DNA of 64,000 nucleotides from Arcobacteraceae bacterium (GCA_048268245.1 JBLWVX010000006.1:32001-96000); one strand, 5' to 3'; shown: positions 27,719 through 35,820, counted from the stretch's first letter. Notes: a model not told the origin generated them from the sequence alone. Numbers and translations: made by a program.

Positions 27719-28966
27719 ATGAGTAAAAAAGATGTTAAAAAAGTTGTATTAGCTTATAGTGGTGGGCTAGATACTTCTACTATTTTAAAATGGCTTCAAG
27801 ACGAGTATAATGCTGAAGTTATTACTTTTACTGCTGACTTAGGTCAAGGTGAAGAAGTTGAACCTGCAAGAGAAAAAGCTTTAGCTTGTGGAATTAAACC
27901 TGAAAATATTTTTATTTTAGATATCAAAGAAGAGTTTGTTAAAGATTACGTATTCCCAATGTTTAGAGCAAATGCAATTTATGAAGGTGAATATTTATTA
28001 GGTACGTCAATTGCTAGACCTTTAATTGCTAAAAAGCAAATTGAAATTGCAAATAAAATGGGTGCAGATGCAGTATCTCATGGTGCTACTGGAAAAGGAA
28101 ATGACCAAGTAAGATTTGAACTTGGATACTTAGGATTAAATCCTGATATTACTGTTATTGCTCCTTGGAGAGAATGGGATTTAAATTCAAGAGAAAAATT
28201 ATTAGCATATGCAAGAGAGCATGGAATTGAAATTGATAAGAAACACTTAGATGAAAATGGAAATCCAGCAATTTCTCCTTATTCTATGGATGCAAACTTA
28301 CTTCATATTTCTTATGAAGGTTTATCATTAGAAAATCCAAATGCAGAACCAGAAGAATCAATGTGGTTATGGACTAATTCCCCTGAAGAAGCACCAAATG
28401 AAGCTGAATATATTACAATTTCATATAAAAATGGTGATCCTATTGCTATTAATGGTGAAGAAATGTCACCTGCAACTATCTTAGAGACTTTAAATAAATA
28501 TGGAAATAAACACGGTATTGGAAGAATCGATATCGTTGAAAATAGATATGTTGGAATGAAAGCTAGAGGTTGTTATGAAACTCCAGGTGGAACTATCATG
28601 TTAAAAGCACATAGAGCAATTGAATCAATTACATTAGATAGAGAAGCTTCTCACTTAAAAGATGAACTAATGCCTAAATATGCTAAGTTAATTTACCAAG
28701 GATATTGGTTCTCTCCTGAAAGAGAAATGATGCAAGCAGCTATTGATAAAACACAAGAAAATGTAGAAGGTACAGTAAGATTAAAACTTTATAAAGGTAA
28801 TGTTATTGTAGTTGGAAGAGAATCAGAAAAATCTTTATTCTCAGAAGCACACTCTACATTTGAAGAAGATGAAGTATATAATCAAAAAGATGCAGAAGGA
28901 TTTATTAGACTTAATGCACTAAGATTTATAATTTCTGGTGAAAATAAAAAATACTATCATTTATAA
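27719..28966 (+). CDS. argG: Argininosuccinate synthase
   Basis: [22 protein letters not shown] and YETPG motifs. Confidence 0.98.
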
Positions 28967-28997
28967 AAATATAAATAAATAATATTTATATTGCTTA

Positions 28998-29032
28998 CAA
29001 AAAGGGCATTTTTTACAAATGCCCTTTTTTTA
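28998..29032 (+). terminator. Rho-independent terminator after argG
   Basis: AAAAAGGGCATTT...AAATGCCCTTTTTTT. Confidence 0.85.
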
Positions 29033-29137
29033 TTATCAATAAAACCTATACCCAAACTTTTTATAGTAGCTAAAATGTAACTTTTTTAGGATATAATATT
29101 ATATGTATTTATATAATTTAGAAAAAAGTGAAAATAA

Positions 29138-30232
29138 ATGAACTATTTAGAAGATCTTAAAAAAATAGTAAAAATCAATTCATATACTGCAAATAAAGAT
29201 GGTGTAGATGAAGTTGGCTTACAAATGACACAATGGCTTGAAAATATAGGCTACTCTACAACTAAATATAAAAGAGAACTTATTGGAGATCATCTTTTAT
29301 TTAAATCAAACAAAAAAAATGGAAAGAAAATATTATTATTAGGTCATAATGATACTGTGTTTCCAAAAAATTATTTTGAAGATTATACAGAAGATGAAAA
29401 ATGGATTTATGGTCCTGGTGTTTGCGATATGAAGGGTGGAAATATTGTAGCACTAGAAGCTCTTAGAAATCTTTATAAAAAATATGGTCAAATTAATAAT
29501 ATTGATTTTTTACTAGTAAGTGATGAAGAAACTGGAAGTGATGATTCTAAAGATGTTACTTCTAGTTTAGCAAAAAATTATGATTATTGTTTTGTTTTTG
29601 AAGCTGCAGGTAAAAATTTAGAAGTAGTAACTTCACGAAAAGGTGTTGGAAGATATATTGTTAAAATAGAAGGAAAAGCAGCTCATGCAGGTACTTCTTA
29701 TGAAAAAGGAATAAATGCAAACCTTGAAGGAGCAATTAAACTACAAAAATATAGTCAATTACTTGATTTAGATAAAGGTACTATTGTAAATGTAGGAAAA
29801 TGTGAAGGTGGAATAGGAATAAATACAGTATCTCCTTTTTTTGAAATGATGTTTGAATTTAGATTTGATAAAAAAAGTGAAAAACAAAGAGTAATGAGTT
29901 GTGTTGAGGAAATATCTAATACTAGTTTTGTTGAAGGTTCAATTTGTCATCTTGATGGAATAATTCAAAGAGATGTTATGGAAGAGAATCAAAAACAATT
30001 AGAGTATCTTAATTTTTTAGAAAAACTTACAAATCAAAAAATTCCTAAAGAACACAGAGGTGGAGTTAGTGATGCTAATATTGTTTCAAATTGTGGAACA
30101 ATTACTATTGATGGTTTCGGTCCTTATGGTGATGGGGATCACACTTTAAAAGAAAGAGCACTTAAGAGTTCTTTTGAACAACGAATACAAATGATGACAA
30201 AAATTTTAGATTATTATCAAAATAGCAATTAA
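29138..30232 (+). CDS. M20 metallopeptidase, carboxypeptidase G2-like
   Basis: GHNDT, GVCDMKGG, DEE, FE, AHAG, GGVSDAN and GDHT motifs; no signal peptide. Confidence 0.9.
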   Translation: MNYLEDLKKIVKINSYTANKDGVDEVGLQMTQWLENIGYSTTKYKRELIGDHLLFKSNKKNGKKILLLGHNDTVFPKNYFEDYTEDEKWIYGPGVCDMKGGNIVALEALRNLYKKYGQINNIDFLLVSDEETGSDDSKDVTSSLAKNYDYCFVFEAAGKNLEVVTSRKGVGRYIVKIEGKAAHAGTSYEKGINANLEGAIKLQKYSQLLDLDKGTIVNVGKCEGGIGINTVSPFFEMMFEFRFDKKSEKQRVMSCVEEISNTSFVEGSICHLDGIIQRDVMEENQKQLEYLNFLEKLTNQKIPKEHRGGVSDANIVSNCGTITIDGFGPYGDGDHTLKERALKSSFEQRIQMMTKILDYYQNSN

Positions 30233-30254
30233 AATTATTTATAGAAGGGATAGT

Positions 30255-31157
30255 ATGGGCAATAGACAAATTGGTATGTGGTTATATCAAAATGGTGGTG
30301 GAGATAAAATCCAAGAAAAATTAATTAAACAATTAAAACAAAGAGATATTGATGTACTTGCTAATATAAATTTAAGAGATGCAATTGCAAAAAATGGGCA
30401 TATCTTATACAAGGATATTAAACTTGATAAATTAGATTTGTTCTTTTCTTATAATGCAGGAGAGCAAACACAATATCAAATGTATTTGTATAAAGCATTA
30501 AATCATGTAATACCAATGATTAATTCTTATGATGCTTTTGAATTAACAGAAGATAAATTTCAAACATCTTTTCTTTTAAGGCACAACAAAATACAAACAG
30601 CTGATTATAAACTTTGTCATAGGGATGATACTCATCATCTTCAAGAAATAATGGAAAAGTGGACTAAGATGGTTTATAAACCAACTGATGGTTGGGGTGG
30701 AGTTGGTCTTACAAAAATAGAGAACCAAGAGACATTAGATATGTTAATTCCTTTTTTAAATCAGATGGATTTGAGATATTTTTATGTAGAAAAATTTATA
30801 GACTATGATAATACTGATTACAGAATTGATATTGTTGATGGACAGTTTGTTGGTTGTTATGGAAGAAAAGCAAGAGAAGGAAGCTGGAAAACAAATGTTA
30901 CTAGTGGAGGAAGTGTTTTTCCTAGAGAGGTAAATGATGAGGTAATCAATTTGGCACTAAAAGCTGTTAAAGTTACAGGACTTGATATTGCAGGAGTTGA
31001 TATTATTTATGATAGAAAAAAAGAAGAGTATATAGTTTTAGAAGTAAATGGAATTCCTGCTTTTGCAACACCAGAACAAGAAAAACTTGGACTTGATTTT
31101 AACGATAAAAAAATAGAATTAATAGCAAATTTAATTGATAAAAAAACAAAAAAATAA
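30255..31157 (+). CDS. RimK-like ATP-grasp ligase
   Basis: EDKF, YKPTDGWGGVG, EKFI, DYR, WKTNVTSGG, GVD and LEVN motifs. Confidence 0.9.
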   Translation: MGNRQIGMWLYQNGGGDKIQEKLIKQLKQRDIDVLANINLRDAIAKNGHILYKDIKLDKLDLFFSYNAGEQTQYQMYLYKALNHVIPMINSYDAFELTEDKFQTSFLLRHNKIQTADYKLCHRDDTHHLQEIMEKWTKMVYKPTDGWGGVGLTKIENQETLDMLIPFLNQMDLRYFYVEKFIDYDNTDYRIDIVDGQFVGCYGRKAREGSWKTNVTSGGSVFPREVNDEVINLALKAVKVTGLDIAGVDIIYDRKKEEYIVLEVNGIPAFATPEQEKLGLDFNDKKIELIANLIDKKTKK

Positions 31158-31169
31158 GGGGAGAAAATA

Positions 31170-32672
31170 ATGGAAAAATTACCAAAGTTAGGATTTTTAT
31201 ATCTTGATTATGTTTTAAGATTCTTTGATCATTCAAATTTCAAAGGTTGGCCTGATAAAATAGAAGAAGTTGTTTATCATTGGAAAAATGATAAAGAAAG
31301 GTTTATAAAAGAGGTTAAAAGTAAAAAGATTGATATCTTAATTGGTAATATTCCAGCAACTGCTTATGATACATTTGTAGAAATATCTAAAGAGTTACCT
31401 CATGTTAGGTTTGTTCCTTCACTACAAACACAATTTTCAAATAAATCAAAAGAAAATGTAACTTTATTTTGTGAAAAAAACAATCTTAGTATCCCTAAAA
31501 CAAAGATTTTTTATGATAAGAAAAAAGGTTTTGAATATTTAAAAAACAAAGCCTCTTATCCTCAAATTATAAAAAGATCTTATGGACCATCTAATTATGG
31601 TGGATATTATGTACATAAAGCTGATAATTATAATGAAGCAAAGAAATTATTAGAAAATAAGAAATATAATCCTATTTATACACAAAATGCAATTGATTTA
31701 AAATATTCAGGGGATTTAAGAGTTATGTTAATTGGACATAAACCTATTTGTGCTTTCTGGAGATTTTCTGGTGATGGAGAGTGGATTACAAACACTTCGC
31801 AGGGTGGTACAATGTCATATGAAAATGTACCGATGAATGCTTTAGAGTTAGCAGTAGAAGCTAGTAAAGCTGCTAAAGCTGAGTATTGGGCTTGTGATAT
31901 TGCCATTTGTGCTAAAACTGATAAACCATATATTTTAGAGTGTGCGACTGCATTTGCAGCCTTTCCTTATATTAGAGATTGGATTGGGCAATATTTAATG
32001 TGGGATTTTTCAAATGGAAGATTTGGAATGCCTCATGTTCCTTTATATTCGTGGGAAGAATTAGGAAAAATTGATTCATCTTTACTTAGAACTATGAGAC
32101 ACATTGGGTTTAGTAAATATAAACCTTCTTGTGATGGTACATGGTATATAAATGATCCTAAAGATAAATTTGATATGTCTTTAACAGAAAAATCAATTGA
32201 TTCAGATTTCCCTGCTTCAGTTAATCCTAAAGATTTACCAATTAAAAAAGAGTTAAATAAGCAAGCTTTAAAAGATGAGTTTGTTTTAGAAAGAATAAAT
32301 TTCAATTGTGCTTCTCTAACTGATATTATGACTCTTCATGGTATGGAAGAGGAGTTAGCATTAGAAATACAAGAATATTTAAAAGATAACATTGTGACAG
32401 ATGCAAGTGATTTATTAGAACTTGAATCAATAGACGAACAACTTTTAAAAACTTGGGATGAAAATCTTGATGATATGAGAATTGATATAAATACTGCAAA
32501 TGAAGAAACTCTTAAGAAAATTAAAGGAATTGGATCTAAATTAGCAAAAGTTATATTAGATTTTAGAAATACTTTTAATGATTTTAGTTCAATTGATGAG
32601 TTAAAACAAATTGATGGTATAGGAAAAAATAAATTAACTCAATTAAAGTCTAGATTAAAAATAGGAGAATAA
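31170..32672 (+). CDS. Divergent RimK-like ATP-grasp ligase fused to tandem ComEA-type HhH domains
   Basis: IIKRSYGPSNYGG, DLRV, WITNTSQGG, ACD, LEC; C-terminal IDINTA...IKGIG...IDGIG. Confidence 0.85.
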   Translation: MEKLPKLGFLYLDYVLRFFDHSNFKGWPDKIEEVVYHWKNDKERFIKEVKSKKIDILIGNIPATAYDTFVEISKELPHVRFVPSLQTQFSNKSKENVTLFCEKNNLSIPKTKIFYDKKKGFEYLKNKASYPQIIKRSYGPSNYGGYYVHKADNYNEAKKLLENKKYNPIYTQNAIDLKYSGDLRVMLIGHKPICAFWRFSGDGEWITNTSQGGTMSYENVPMNALELAVEASKAAKAEYWACDIAICAKTDKPYILECATAFAAFPYIRDWIGQYLMWDFSNGRFGMPHVPLYSWEELGKIDSSLLRTMRHIGFSKYKPSCDGTWYINDPKDKFDMSLTEKSIDSDFPASVNPKDLPIKKELNKQALKDEFVLERINFNCASLTDIMTLHGMEEELALEIQEYLKDNIVTDASDLLELESIDEQLLKTWDENLDDMRIDINTANEETLKKIKGIGSKLAKVILDFRNTFNDFSSIDELKQIDGIGKNKLTQLKSRLKIGE

Positions 32673-32673
32673 G

Positions 32674-35259
32674 TTGAAACAACTTTATAGATCATACGCC
32701 CAGTCAACAGAAATTTTTAAAGATTTAGAAAAGAAGTATCCAAAGTACATCAAGCTTGAATCAATTGGACAAACTTGGGAAAAAAGAGATATAAATTTAA
32801 TTACAATATCAAAAGATATAGAAACAGCTTCAACTAGACCTGCCTTATTTTATACAGGAACTATTCATGCTAGAGAATGGATTGGTCATGAATTAGCAAT
32901 TGAATTTGCAACTTATATTTTAGAAAATCATGATAATGACCCCATTCTTAAGTTCTATTTAGAACATGCAACAATTTATATGGTTCCTTGTGTTAATCCT
33001 GATGGTTATGAATATTCAAGAAATCATTTTTCTTTTTGGAGAAAAAACAGGCGTGTAAATGCTAATGGAACCTATGGAGTGGATTTAAATAGAAACTTTC
33101 CAATAGGTTTTGTAAAATCAACACTCACTACTTCAAATGTATATGGAGGTCCCGAGCCATTTAGTGAACCTGAAACTCAAGCTTTAAAAAAATTTGTTGA
33201 AAGTCATGAGAATATAACAATAGCCTTAGATTATCATTCTCAAGGAAATGTGTTTTTCCCTGCTCATGATTTTAGACATGAGGATACTTTTGATACAACA
33301 GATATGAATACTTTATGTGCAAATATGGCAGAAAAAATTAGAAAAATTTCAGGTCGAGAATATGGAATACATCAAGGGAAACCACCAGCTAAGCTTATTT
33401 CAGGAAGCGGTAGAGAATTTTATTATTCAAAAGGAATAATCTCTACTGTTGTTGAAGTTGGAACTAGAAATATAAGTGATTATTTAGATGATATGAGTGA
33501 ACATATTAGAGAACATATTCCTGCACTTTTAGCTGCTGTAGCAGAAGTACCAAACTATAGTGGAAACGGTCCTAAAAGAGTTAAATCTTTTGAAGTAATT
33601 GATATAGGTTCTTCCCATGTAGAACTAAAATGGAATTATGAAGATAAAGAAAATATATACTTCGAGATTTATAGAAGTTTAAAAAATAAGTCTTTTTGTA
33701 ATGATAGCAATTTAATAGTGAGAACCCAAAAATTAGAATTTAGTGATATTAATCTTTTTTCAAATAAAGATTATTATTATAATATTAGAGCTGTAAATAG
33801 TAAAACAGGTTTAAAATCACCTTTTTGCCCACAAATTAAAATTAGAACAAATCTTGAATATGATGAATTTAGTAGAACTTATTATGCTAGTAAAAATGAA
33901 ACAGGATATGTATCTGAAAATATTAATGATAATGCAAAACATTTTGGTGTTAACTCTTTGTTTGTTGGTGTTGATGAACATAAAGGTGTTTCTTATGCAG
34001 TTATCACTATTGATATAAAGTCTTTACCCTCAAATGCATTAATAAAACATGCAGAGTTTAATTTATATCCTATTAATAGAGTATCAACAACAATTGAAAA
34101 ATATGGTGAATGGAATGTTGCTATAGTTGATCAAACCCAAATGGGGGATATTACCGATTTTGATGATGTTGATAATATGAAAATTATTAAATATATTGGA
34201 AGACCAACTCAATCTCATCAATTAACACAAGGTATATGGAGAACTTGGGAATTCTCAGCTATGGAGTGTGAATTTCTAAAAAAGTATGTTCATAATAATA
34301 AAATAGTATTAAGAGTTGAAGGTCCAAAAGAACTTAGAATTGGAAGAACTAGACAAATGATGCAATGGGACATAGGTTATGGTAAATTTGGTTTTGGTCT
34401 TACGTATAGACCAAGCTTAGAATTAACATATACATTAAAACCTGAAATAACTGCTTTATACCCTACTTCTGTTAATACAATAAGTAAAAATGAGATAAAA
34501 GATGATGAGATAACAGCTGGTTTTGATGAAAATGGATTAAAAATTTATTCAACTTTTGAATTTAATTTATCATCATTACCACCTTATGATAAGAGCATGA
34601 TTACAAAAGCATATTTTGAGTTAAATTCAACAAAAATATATATTAAAGATGACATTAGATTTCATATTGAATTTGTCGATGATAATATTGAAAAAAATTA
34701 CGAAAGTATCACAAATAGAGAAGTTATACAAAATATTGGTTATGATGTTAGTGCAGCAGAGCTTAAGAATAATCAAACACAGTATTTCATGTTTGATACA
34801 TTTGCTGAAAAGACTTTAAATGAAAAGGTAAAAGATAAAGAAAGTATTTCTTTTGTCTTAAAACCTACTTCTTCAAAAAAATCAATCAAAAATAAAAAAG
34901 TATCTTGGGAAATTAAAAATATATCTTTATCACCAAAATTAATTATTGAACATATACCAAAAAGAAGAGATAGTTTAGCTCAAGTAAAAAATGCAAAGCT
35001 AATTGAAGAAAATGGAAAAGTGAAATTAACTTGGGAAAACCCTATTGATATTGATTTTGTAGGTGTAAAAGTTATAAAAAATCCATTTAGAGAGCCTTAT
35101 TCTTCTCAGGATGGTCAAAAGCTTTATGCAGGTAAAGATGATTATACTTATGATGATTTTGGAGCAATGGATATTGATAAGTATTATGCTATATTTACTT
35201 ATGATGATGTTCCAAATTATAGTAAGCCTATAATATTAAAATATAATGCAAATAAGTAA
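32674..35259 (+). CDS. M14 zinc carboxypeptidase with FN3-like and other beta-rich C-terminal domains
   Basis: HARE, NPDG, RKN, DLNRN, SEPE, DYHS and VE motifs; TTG start with GGAG RBS; no signal peptide. Confidence 0.9.
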   Translation: MKQLYRSYAQSTEIFKDLEKKYPKYIKLESIGQTWEKRDINLITISKDIETASTRPALFYTGTIHAREWIGHELAIEFATYILENHDNDPILKFYLEHATIYMVPCVNPDGYEYSRNHFSFWRKNRRVNANGTYGVDLNRNFPIGFVKSTLTTSNVYGGPEPFSEPETQALKKFVESHENITIALDYHSQGNVFFPAHDFRHEDTFDTTDMNTLCANMAEKIRKISGREYGIHQGKPPAKLISGSGREFYYSKGIISTVVEVGTRNISDYLDDMSEHIREHIPALLAAVAEVPNYSGNGPKRVKSFEVIDIGSSHVELKWNYEDKENIYFEIYRSLKNKSFCNDSNLIVRTQKLEFSDINLFSNKDYYYNIRAVNSKTGLKSPFCPQIKIRTNLEYDEFSRTYYASKNETGYVSENINDNAKHFGVNSLFVGVDEHKGVSYAVITIDIKSLPSNALIKHAEFNLYPINRVSTTIEKYGEWNVAIVDQTQMGDITDFDDVDNMKIIKYIGRPTQSHQLTQGIWRTWEFSAMECEFLKKYVHNNKIVLRVEGPKELRIGRTRQMMQWDIGYGKFGFGLTYRPSLELTYTLKPEITALYPTSVNTISKNEIKDDEITAGFDENGLKIYSTFEFNLSSLPPYDKSMITKAYFELNSTKIYIKDDIRFHIEFVDDNIEKNYESITNREVIQNIGYDVSAAELKNNQTQYFMFDTFAEKTLNEKVKDKESISFVLKPTSSKKSIKNKKVSWEIKNISLSPKLIIEHIPKRRDSLAQVKNAKLIEENGKVKLTWENPIDIDFVGVKVIKNPFREPYSSQDGQKLYAGKDDYTYDDFGAMDIDKYYAIFTYDDVPNYSKPIILKYNANK

Positions 35260-35276
35260 TACTTATTTGCATTTTT
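35245..35276 (+). terminator. Terminator of the ATP-grasp/peptidase operon
   Basis: AATGCAAATAAGT-AAT-ACTTATTTGCATT followed by T residues. Confidence 0.75.
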
Positions 35277-35319
35277 AAAAATCACAAGTTATAATAAACC
35301 TAAAAAATTAGGAAATAAT

Positions 35320-35820
35320 ATGATTTTGAAGTTTAAAGAATTTTATCCAAAAATAGATTCAACTGCTTGGGTAGCACCTAGTGCTGATATTATAGGTGAT
35401 GTTATTATCGGCGAAAACTCTTCTGTTTGGTTTCAATGTGTAATTAGATCAGATGTAAATAAAGTTAGGATTGGCAAAAATACTAATATTCAAGATTTAT
35501 CTATGATACATACAGATACTCACACATCAACTATAATTGGAGATAATGTAACAATAGGACATAAAGTTATGCTTCATGGTTGTAAAATTGAAAATAATTG
35601 TCTTATTGGAATGAGTGCTACTATTCTTGATGATGCAATAATTGGTGAAGGTTCTATTGTTGGAGCTAACTCTTTAGTGACATCAGGGAAAAAGTTTCCA
35701 CCTAAAAGTTTGATTATGGGAAGTCCGGCTAAAGTAGTAAAACAGCTAACTGACGAAGATGTAGAAGGCTTAATTAAACATGCAGGTCATTATGTAGATT
35801 ATAAAAATGATTATAGCTAA
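35320..35820 (+). CDS. Gamma carbonic anhydrase family (hexapeptide repeat) protein
   Basis: RSD, NIQD, IH, TIGH and LHGC motifs. Confidence 0.92.
   Translation: MILKFKEFYPKIDSTAWVAPSADIIGDVIIGENSSVWFQCVIRSDVNKVRIGKNTNIQDLSMIHTDTHTSTIIGDNVTIGHKVMLHGCKIENNCLIGMSATILDDAIIGEGSIVGANSLVTSGKKFPPKSLIMGSPAKVVKQLTDEDVEGLIKHAGHYVDYKNDYS

Follow-up and report, generated by a model that had tools for sequence, protein, structure and literature searches.

Within an AT-rich region (G+C approximately 26-32% around the genes) of a 64,000-nucleotide stretch of DNA from an Arcobacteraceae bacterium (GCA_048268245.1, JBLWVX010000006.1:32001-96000; hereafter the window, meaning the whole stretch, from whose first letter all coordinates are counted), four plus-strand open reading frames (ORFs) follow one another between positions 29138 and 35259 with intergenic gaps of 22, 12 and 1 nucleotides. 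They encode an M20 peptidase, two ATP-grasp proteins and an M14 carboxypeptidase (Table 1), and we use the names GraspA for the ATP-grasp protein of the RimK/MptN clade and GraspHhH for the divergent ATP-grasp protein with a helix-hairpin-helix (HhH) tail. An initial annotation, made from the sequence of the window, had described four tightly packed and co-oriented genes for a carboxypeptidase G2-like M20 enzyme, a RimK-like ATP-grasp, an ATP-grasp-HhH fusion and an M14 enzyme; our ORF calls agree with this packing, and searches against Pfam and NCBIfam bear out the family assignments. None of the four ORFs can be extended upstream, each beginning at the first start codon past a stop, and, as the annotation had likewise concluded, no hydrophobic signal-peptide stretch is seen at the four N-termini when these are inspected by eye rather than with a predictor. 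As argued below, we consider it most likely that this cassette, a widely conserved cytoplasmic module, assembles chains of glutamate-like residues and takes them apart again.

Conservation and distribution of the cassette

Scanning one genome per species with GraspHhH yielded 471 confirmed stretches, and the locus counts given here refer to the best 80 of these. Because 74 of the 80 loci keep the order M20-GraspA-GraspHhH-M14 on one strand, and because the other six (L018, L050, L056, L058, L060 and L062) reach a contig end where the absent gene is expected, the four-gene arrangement is far beyond chance. Carriers belong to the Arcobacteraceae, Sulfurospirillaceae, Sulfurimonadaceae, Hydrogenimonadaceae and Sulfurovaceae and include three Thermodesulfobacteriota bins; the set is also present on the second replicon of a Photobacterium, where the M20 gene is divergently oriented, as it is in 6 of 21 related metagenome loci. 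The argG, gamma carbonic anhydrase and dUTPase genes that flank the cassette recur in Arcobacteraceae only, while other lineages have different flanks (33 argG ORFs occur among the 80 loci, with argG adjacency confined to those of Arcobacteraceae), and no conserved fifth gene was found across the lineages compared. Variable flanks together with the absence of a fifth gene are compatible with a module whose requirements do not go beyond common metabolites or a target present everywhere.

To gauge co-occurrence genome-wide, we used a sample of 401 Campylobacterota genomes, evenly drawn and with a completeness of 90% or more throughout. Of these, 38 have the GraspHhH core, 38 the M14 tail and 37 both, and neither was found in the two largest families sampled (0/118 and 0/158 genomes). 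The gene-neighborhood survey that the initial annotation had named among the tests of its proposal, namely conservation as a set, thus revealed genes that are strongly co-conserved, both by locus (74/80) and by genome (37/401). Of the two, one genome of the sample has GraspHhH alone, in the form of a 99-residue remnant with stop codons. Another, an Arcobacteraceae genome (G352; L094:5720-10236), has M14 by itself, as an intact ORF of 865 amino acids between argG and the carbonic anhydrase gene, with no GraspA or GraspHhH orthologue in the genome and no M20 gene in the locus; this genome retains a canonical RimK.

The cassette is split in two genomes of one genus (G169 and G010), in which GraspHhH lies approximately 800 kb away from M20-GraspA-M14 and is still kept, about 30 nucleotides downstream of efp and just upstream of dnaE (L091:7020-12674 and L093:6336-12094). 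Quick trees of the GraspHhH core and of M14 recover the same three major groups, and both place the Thermodesulfobacteriota rows at two separate positions. On the basis of the co-occurrence, the split and the concordant trees, the four-gene set behaves as a single accessory and transferable unit. A Halarcobacter bin has the cassette twice on the same 413-kb contig (CBDEWB010000017.1; L009 and L014), with near-identical identities and one M20 match shorter, which may reflect either a duplication or a repeat in the assembly.

Residue conservation in the two ATP-grasp proteins

GraspA matches the Pfam RimK domain with 83.2 bits (cut-off 21) and scores below the cut-offs of the NCBIfam models for MptN (156 bits, cut-off 350), the RimK family (TIGR00768, 137.7 and 143.4), LysX (102 and 275.6), CofF (71 and 300) and RimK proper (PRK10446, 61 and 331). 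GraspHhH also passes the Pfam RimK cut-off, with 56.8 bits, and remains under the NCBIfam cut-offs, with 64.8 bits for TIGR00768 and 15.9 bits for PRK10446. Judged from these profiles both ligases appear to fall in the RimK/MptN/LysX/CofF clade, which handles glutamate-type substrates, in keeping with the link between RimK-family enzymes and glutamate drawn by the initial annotation. The canonical ATP-grasp residues that we checked (the Lys, the hinge Glu/Gln, an Arg, the Arg of the W/F-R-x-N motif, an Asp and the E-x-N motif) are all present in GraspA, where K142, E179, R190, N214, D249, E263 and N265 are kept in 37/37 sequences and position 212 is Arg in 32 and Lys in 5 of them. GraspA proteins come in two types, approximately 75% and 55% identical to the window copy, one locus having both in tandem, and a second GraspA paralogue is present in 4 of the 80 loci (L015:12226-13143, L044:4812-5762, L066:12820-13629 and L078:7059-7985); GraspHhH is single in all loci, even where GraspA is duplicated.

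The first approximately 330 residues of GraspHhH are the most conserved and slowest-evolving part of the cassette. Across 78 sequences 121 of 500 residues are invariant, concentrated in the first approximately 320 positions, and there is little conservation past residue 330 or so. An exhaustive search of 1.84 billion representative proteins returned five full-length GraspHhH representatives of 50%-identity clusters (63-84% identity), beyond which the scores fall off from approximately 460 bits to 68 bits, as low as those of generic RimK-like proteins, and an Atlas feature search with the GraspHhH core retrieved generic RimK-like clusters only. In an alignment of 35 sequences GraspHhH keeps the ATP- and Mg-binding residues K135, Q172, R184, D243 and E257. 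By contrast, the position of the RimK-type Arg of W/F-R-x-N (206) is Ile or Leu, and that of the RimK-type Asn of E-x-N (259) is Ala, in 35/35 sequences. The corresponding Asn of Pseudomonas RimK, N262, contacts the terminal glutamate of the bound chain (PMC10092738). GraspHhH, which lacks these two canonical residues, could be a ligase whose nucleophile site is altered, or else a partner that binds ATP without being catalytic.

The C-terminal part of GraspHhH is more variable. Residues 331-430 have a net charge of -13, and in the gammaproteobacterial representatives the linker is long and of low complexity. PDB matches of the tail are to ComEA HhH domains, with a weak PsbU-like match over residues 374-432. 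GraspHhH ORFs have 498-545 amino acids in 53 of the 80 loci and 440-459 amino acids in 25, and a canonical HHH_3 domain was present in the window protein and in the two cluster representatives of approximately 500-650 amino acids that were scanned, while no HhH domain was found in the two short forms scanned as representatives of the 25/80 class (L046 and L063) and the HHH_3 match in another short form (L045) was insignificant. The unlinked GraspHhH of the split genomes (473 amino acids) has an HHH_5 domain. The ATP-grasp-HhH fusion that the initial annotation had described is thus present in the window, but the tail is not universal in the family. The C-terminal Glu of GraspHhH itself ("KIGE") was considered as an acceptor and rejected because the C-terminus is not conserved.

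Natural fusion of the two ATP-grasp proteins

A search for longer relatives of GraspA led to one protein cluster that contains natural fusions of GraspA with the GraspHhH core, represented by 3 of its 4 members (P0391, P0392 and P0394 with 640, 631 and 640 amino acids). In these proteins GraspA (54% identity over 99% of the query) is followed by a linker of approximately 17 residues and by the GraspHhH core (61% identity, residues 3-316), with no HhH tail. They come from several metagenome contigs and fall into two diverged junction variants, the reading frame being open in both. The fusion is known from protein sequences, GraspA and GraspHhH being separate in all 21 related metagenome loci, and provides the best evidence here that the two ATP-grasp proteins would act together. 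A complex prediction for GraspA with the GraspHhH core returned a score of 0.00, to which we attach no weight either way.

The two metallo-carboxypeptidases

The M20 enzyme matches Peptidase_M20 (64.7 bits) and M20_dimer (45.4 bits) of Pfam, and its best relative of solved structure is carboxypeptidase G2 (1cg2, E 2.4e-29), to which it aligns over its full length. In this end-to-end HMMER alignment the His, Asp, Glu-Glu, Glu and His motifs are matched, and all five metal ligands and the catalytic Glu are kept; the secretion signal of the Pseudomonas enzyme is absent from the cassette protein, while the metal ligands are common to both. Scores against NCBIfam models lie below the cut-offs (PRK07338, 193 bits; the glutamate carboxypeptidase PRK06133, 164 bits versus 349), and 84 of 364 residues are invariant in 74 sequences.

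The closest solved relatives of the M14 domain are carboxypeptidases A4, A2, A1, O, B and T. Residues H65, E68, H188, R123, N139 and R140 align with carboxypeptidase A4 (the HxxE...H zinc site and the equivalents of Arg127 and Asn144-Arg145), and these six together with R247 and E261 are invariant in 33/33 sequences, E261 lying beyond the end of the HMMER alignment and being assigned by eye as the equivalent of Glu270. In the same alignment Arg247 falls on Ile255 of carboxypeptidase A. We take this position to set the S1' specificity, with Asp in carboxypeptidase B selecting basic and Arg in carboxypeptidase O selecting acidic residues, and with Arg247 the cassette M14 would be expected to remove C-terminal Glu or Asp. 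The position of carboxypeptidase A Tyr248 is variable in the family (Lys in 19/33, otherwise His, Arg, Ser and others). Arg247 in M14 and the full-length carboxypeptidase G2 alignment of M20 make both peptidases look specific for C-terminal acidic residues. M14 keeps the catalytic residues of carboxypeptidases O and A (M14A) but differs from them in having no signal peptide and no pro-domain, the catalytic domain beginning at residue 14 or earlier in an ORF that is not extendable, so that the hallmark of a secreted zymogen is missing, and in carrying a tail of 570 amino acids with FN3- and CBM96-like domains.

The tail contains two mutually homologous domains (residues 396-598 and 599-768; hhalign probability 96.1%, E 2.9e-9, 149 columns). 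The DNRLRE model NF033679 scores 36.1 bits on the whole M14 protein (cut-off 34), and an Atlas feature search with the tail returned CBM96 clusters at a score of 0.91. The segments on either side of this pair bear a weak resemblance to FN3, and PF00041 (fn3) is precomputed on 4 of the 120 listed homologues; all 120 listed matches belong to the same M14 family, with no other architecture among them, and the conserved C-terminal domain (769-861) gave no significant family match. DNRLRE corresponds to the CBM96 family, whose founding member binds an internal stretch of alginate, a polycarboxylate, in a groove lined with Lys and Arg and which is also represented in alginate, hyaluronate and pectate lyases (PMC9971899). 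With FN3-like and tandem chain-binding modules behind its catalytic domain, M14 seems, by domain architecture, to have the layout of enzymes that act on long polymers.

Borders, expression and neighboring genes

The initial annotation had placed the cassette between the argG terminator and a terminator of its own, and a hairpin is indeed found on either side (Table 1). The argG hairpin delimits, on the 5' side, a transcription unit belonging to the cassette alone, and the one overlapping the M14 stop codon is likely a terminator. In several Arcobacteraceae loci GTTAC..GTAAC-like inverted repeats or TGTAAC half-sites lie approximately 60-70 nucleotides 5' of the M20 start (29060-29100 in the window), and this motif, noticed by eye, may be a putative operator. 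An Rfam scan of the window detected four tRNAs only, clustered at 287-663, and no riboswitch or leader, including in the region 29030-29137. The nearest public locus is that of Arcobacter sp. YIC-310, with 98-100% protein identity. Searches for phage relatives of the cassette and for PADLOC defense systems gave no match.

Table 1. Features of the cassette and its borders in the window
Feature	Position	Strand	Remarks
argG	27719-28966		NF001770, 638 bits
Terminator-like hairpin of upstream argG	28999-29029	+	13-pair stem, then T run
Promoter/leader region (candidate)	29030-29137	+	TATAAT-like box and TGTAAC half-site, read from the sequence; lead only
M20 ORF	29138-30232	+	364 amino acids, ATG start
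GraspA ORF	30255-31157	+	300 amino acids, ATG start
GraspHhH ORF	31170-32672	+	500 amino acids, ATG start
GraspHhH core, residues 1-330	31170-32159	+	Divergent ATP-grasp, Pfam RimK 56.8 bits
GraspHhH acidic linker start, residues 331-373	32160-32288	+	Poorly conserved
Tandem ComEA-type HhH region, residues ~374-496	32289-32657	+	HHH_3 83.8 bits, two stretches, best 437-496
M14 ORF	32674-35259	+	861 amino acids, TTG start
M14 catalytic domain, residues 1-295	32674-33558	+	Pfam Peptidase_M14 207.9 bits (residues 14-265); M14A-like
FN3-like domain 1, residues 296-395	33559-33858	+	Weak: Pfam fn3 E 0.017, 15.8 bits, under cut-off
DNRLRE/CBM96-like domain 1, residues 396-598	33859-34467	+	NF033679 E<=0.01 in 25/33 members
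DNRLRE/CBM96-like domain 2, residues 599-768	34468-34977	+	NF033679 E<=0.01 in 19/33 members, best stretch 611-758
Conserved C-terminal domain, residues 769-861 and stop	34978-35259	+	W787, P790, D813, G814, Y843, D844, P847 and N848 conserved
Hairpin overlapping M14 stop codon	35245-35273		Strand undefined; 13-pair stem, then ATTTTT on the plus strand
Gamma carbonic anhydrase gene	starts 35320		Next downstream of M14

Over the region 28500-35800, near-identical fragments of all four genes occur in oyster metatranscriptome contigs (four runs of one study), one of which begins at 29136, two bases before the M20 start codon. Since none of these contigs bridges two genes and carry-over of DNA is possible, they give a weak hint of expression.

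Relation to known systems

The RimABK system of E. coli and Pseudomonas performs poly-alpha-L-glutamylation of ribosomal protein S6, which is reversed by the retropepsin-like RimB. Like the cassette, it brings together a dedicated Glu-removing peptidase and an ATP-grasp ligase, the latter from the Pfam family to which GraspA and GraspHhH also belong. However, RimB is an aspartic endopeptidase, whereas the cassette peptidases are metallo-exopeptidases (M14 and M20) without any retropepsin, and the cassette has two ligases that are each only approximately 24-25% identical to RimK. RimK also makes free poly-alpha-Glu, and RimB stimulates this synthesis (PMC11957791). The genome of the window encodes a separate canonical RimK (308 amino acids, Pfam 215 bits; 24% identity with GraspA) on another contig (C13, L082:785-2136), preceded by a RimB-type, retropepsin-like ORF of 141 amino acids with a DTGA motif. 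Its S6 (contig C3, L081:1486-1839) ends in ...EAAKKAN and, unlike the E. coli RimK target, has no acidic C-terminus; this RimK may have another acceptor or make free poly-Glu. A second, partial RimK, 83% identical to the first over 145 residues, is cut by a contig end (C51:12322-12756). Canonical RimK is present in 47 of the 401 sampled genomes but in just 11 of the 37 with a full cassette; the two are distributed independently, and dependence of the cassette on canonical RimK was therefore rejected.

The TTLL glutamylases and the cytosolic carboxypeptidases (CCP, M14D), the latter specific for acidic residues, are the writers and erasers of tubulin glutamylation in eukaryotes. Their logic is alike, with an ATP-grasp writer, an acidic-specific M14 eraser and a docking domain of a charged or nucleic-acid-binding type, but the cassette is an analogue and not a member: neither ligase has a TTL-family Pfam match at E<=0.01, no chain named cytosolic carboxypeptidase is among the 54 PDB matches of M14, no domain that could be the M14D N-terminal beta-sandwich precedes the catalytic domain, and the enzyme is nearer to the A/B/T-type carboxypeptidases. 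In the cyanophycin system, an ATP-grasp-based synthetase, a linked exo-acting cyanophycinase and a finishing isoaspartyl dipeptidase make and use a non-ribosomal cytoplasmic polyamide reserve. The cassette would be similar in its predicted combination of ATP-grasp polymerization with an exo-depolymerase and a finishing peptidase, and differs by its score against the synthetase model (TIGR02068, 46.6 bits versus a cut-off of 850), by the absence of a Mur-ligase-like domain and by its peptidase families. MptN, CofF and LysX, which are ligases for cofactors or the LysW carrier, provide the best curated matches of GraspA, yet all lie far above it in their equivalog cut-offs, and the carriers of the cassette are not methanogens. 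The absence of a matching characterized pathway that the initial annotation had noted is upheld here for RimK/RimB, LysW/LysX/LysK and graspetides. No description of the four-gene set was found in the literature by a search that did not cover the 2009 amidoligase comparative-genomics paper of Iyer and colleagues.

Discussion

On the evidence above we consider glutamate-type add-and-trim chemistry in general to be the probable function of the cassette, and we favor, with a probability of roughly 40%, a self-contained system for a long alpha-linked acidic (glutamate-type) chain that is free or bound to a primer. This long-chain version is preferred because the module is self-contained and mobile, because M14 has tandem domains of a polycarboxylate-binding type and because there are two exopeptidases, which together could reduce a chain to monomers and for this reason look catabolic rather than regulatory. 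From the protein sequences we infer glutamate as the residue, the length of the chain, each catalytic activity and the following division of labor. GraspA would be the catalytic ATP-grasp ligase, and GraspHhH, its ATP-binding but non-canonical paralogue, would join it in one complex as an acceptor-selecting, priming or regulatory subunit, tethered to nucleic acid in many lineages through the HhH tail on its flexible acidic linker. M14 would grip the chain with its two CBM96-like domains and take acidic residues off the C-terminus one by one, and M20 would clear what M14 cannot cut, namely the last acyl-Glu or a dipeptide. The writer and eraser arrangement of the initial annotation is retained here as far as co-conservation, ligase clade and acidic-type peptidases are concerned, but its split into an initiating and an elongating ligase is not supported as it stands, GraspHhH being without two canonical catalytic-site residues in every sequence. 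A bolder version, to which we give little credence, would see in the cassette the complete machinery for synthesis and remobilization of a new, poly-alpha-glutamate-like cytoplasmic polyamide, with a two-subunit synthetase tethered to the nucleoid by the HhH tail in many lineages, an M14 exo-depolymerase and an M20 finisher, serving environmental bacteria as a reserve of the cyanophycin type or as a charge or osmotic buffer.

Several observations weigh against a long acidic chain. Even profile against profile, the N-terminal domain of neither ligase can be aligned to that of RimK, and it is in this very domain that the poly-Glu contacts of RimK (S7, R8, S14, R64 and S68) are located (PMC10092738). 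The acceptor of both ligases is thus probably not bound in the way RimK binds poly-Glu, and RimK-like elongation of poly-Glu is not implied. The single tail domains of M14 score 26.9 and 19.4 bits with NF033679, below the cut-off of 34, their profiles yield chance-level matches only when compared with the PDB, and their net charge is not basic. The genome that holds M14 without the ligases suggests that M14 may have a ligase-independent substrate. A conserved macromolecular partner would account for the extreme conservation of GraspHhH and for its nucleic-acid-type tail no less well than a free polymer would. Moreover, we know of no natural cytoplasmic poly-alpha-glutamate polymer.

An alternative that we regard as possible is a reversible tag. 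The ligase pair would attach a few Glu residues to one specific protein, highly conserved and probably bound to nucleic acid, at its C-terminus or on a side chain, and M14 and M20 would be the erasers, in a bacterial system analogous to TTLL/CCP or RimK/RimB. Among characterized proteins the nearest relatives are RimK and LysX, which are generally known to modify protein C-termini; an HhH tail on a flexible linker suggests docking to DNA or RNA, and GraspHhH evolves very slowly, as would suit a protein in contact with some conserved macromolecule. The mobility of the cassette and its lack of a target gene would be compatible with a universal target. No target gene is linked in any lineage examined, which agrees with the initial annotation in that no credible precursor peptide or substrate gene adjoins the cassette. 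Candidates exist in the genome of the window, where 41 ORFs (20 of which were scanned against Pfam) end in [DE]E, including those of RecA, RpoZ, RbfA, ClpS and RmuC. However, RecA C-termini are acidic in six cassette-bearing and five cassette-free genomes alike and hence do not discriminate, the S6 C-terminus described above is not that of a RimK target, and the genome already has a RimK-RimB pair elsewhere, canonical RimK being absent from most full-cassette genomes. A tail of 570 residues with tandem CBM-like domains and a second, finishing peptidase would be unexpected for a simple eraser, and the HhH tail is undetected in the short GraspHhH forms.

Less probable still is a role in small-molecule metabolism, in which the ligases would attach glutamate to a cofactor or metabolite, in the manner of MptN and CofF or of RIMKLA/B, the makers of N-acetyl-aspartyl-glutamate, or would produce a short acidic peptide, for example an osmolyte, and the peptidases would recycle the product. 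MptN and CofF are among the curated matches of GraspA, the former being its best, and CPG2-type M20 enzymes are generally known to cut Glu from N-acyl-Glu compounds such as folate. Mammalian RimK-like ligases are reported to synthesize N-acetyl-aspartyl-glutamate, and the carriers found are environmental bacteria, many of them named from marine, sediment or vent samples. Yet all curated scores are far under the equivalog cut-offs, no transporter or other biosynthetic gene is linked, the HhH tail would have no role and an M14A-type enzyme of 861 residues with FN3 and CBM96-like domains would be hard to explain. A graspetide-like ribosomally synthesized and post-translationally modified peptide, or a cell-wall peptide pathway such as murein recycling, seems very improbable. 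Microviridin-type clusters do have two ATP-grasp ligases, and cytoplasmic MpaA (M14) and PepD (M20) degrade murein peptides in E. coli; but the only candidate precursors at the locus are two chance-like ORFs of 29-32 amino acids with TTG starts that overlap the argG terminator, the internal gaps measure 1-22 nucleotides, neither a transporter nor a GNAT gene is linked, the 54 PDB matches of M14 include no chain named murein peptide amidase, and the score of the ligases on the D-Ala-D-Ala ligase domain is just 26 bits. Close to refuted is a pathway of the LysW/LysX/LysK type with an amino-group carrier protein. A RimK-family ligase beside an M20 hydrolase is reminiscent of LysX and LysK, as is generally known, and argG adjoins the cassette in Arcobacteraceae, but in these loci only. 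A search for LysW (TIGR01206) that matched 4 of 14 control genomes gave no hit in the genome of the window, which is 99.3% complete, the LysX and LysK-type models (the latter TIGR01902, 48.8 bits versus 163.1) are missed by a wide margin, and no kinase, reductase or aminotransferase gene is linked. The same genome encodes a rubredoxin of 54 amino acids (C11:39528-39692, L099) that ends in ...EDFEPLEE and, as a small metal-binding protein, has the general shape of a LysW-like carrier.

This analysis adds the ligase fusion, the degeneracy of the GraspHhH active site, the Arg at the S1' position of M14, the homology of its tandem CBM96-like tail domains, the cassette's independence of RimK, S6 and LysW, the genomes with a split cassette or with M14 only, and the genome-wide co-occurrence counts. 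All parts of the cassette come from familiar enzyme families, and it is their combination that forms a sharply delimited and slowly evolving module in hundreds of species. GraspHhH, degenerate yet ultra-conserved, is a candidate pseudo-enzyme or priming subunit and as such should interest those who study ATP-grasp enzymes. The module is directly testable, since its four proteins are soluble and the natural ligase fusion offers a ready-made construct. If it attaches a protein tag, it would represent a bacterial counterpart of the tubulin glutamylation code with metallo-carboxypeptidases as erasers; if its product is a free chain, cyanophycin would be joined by a new amino-acid polymer of the cytoplasm.

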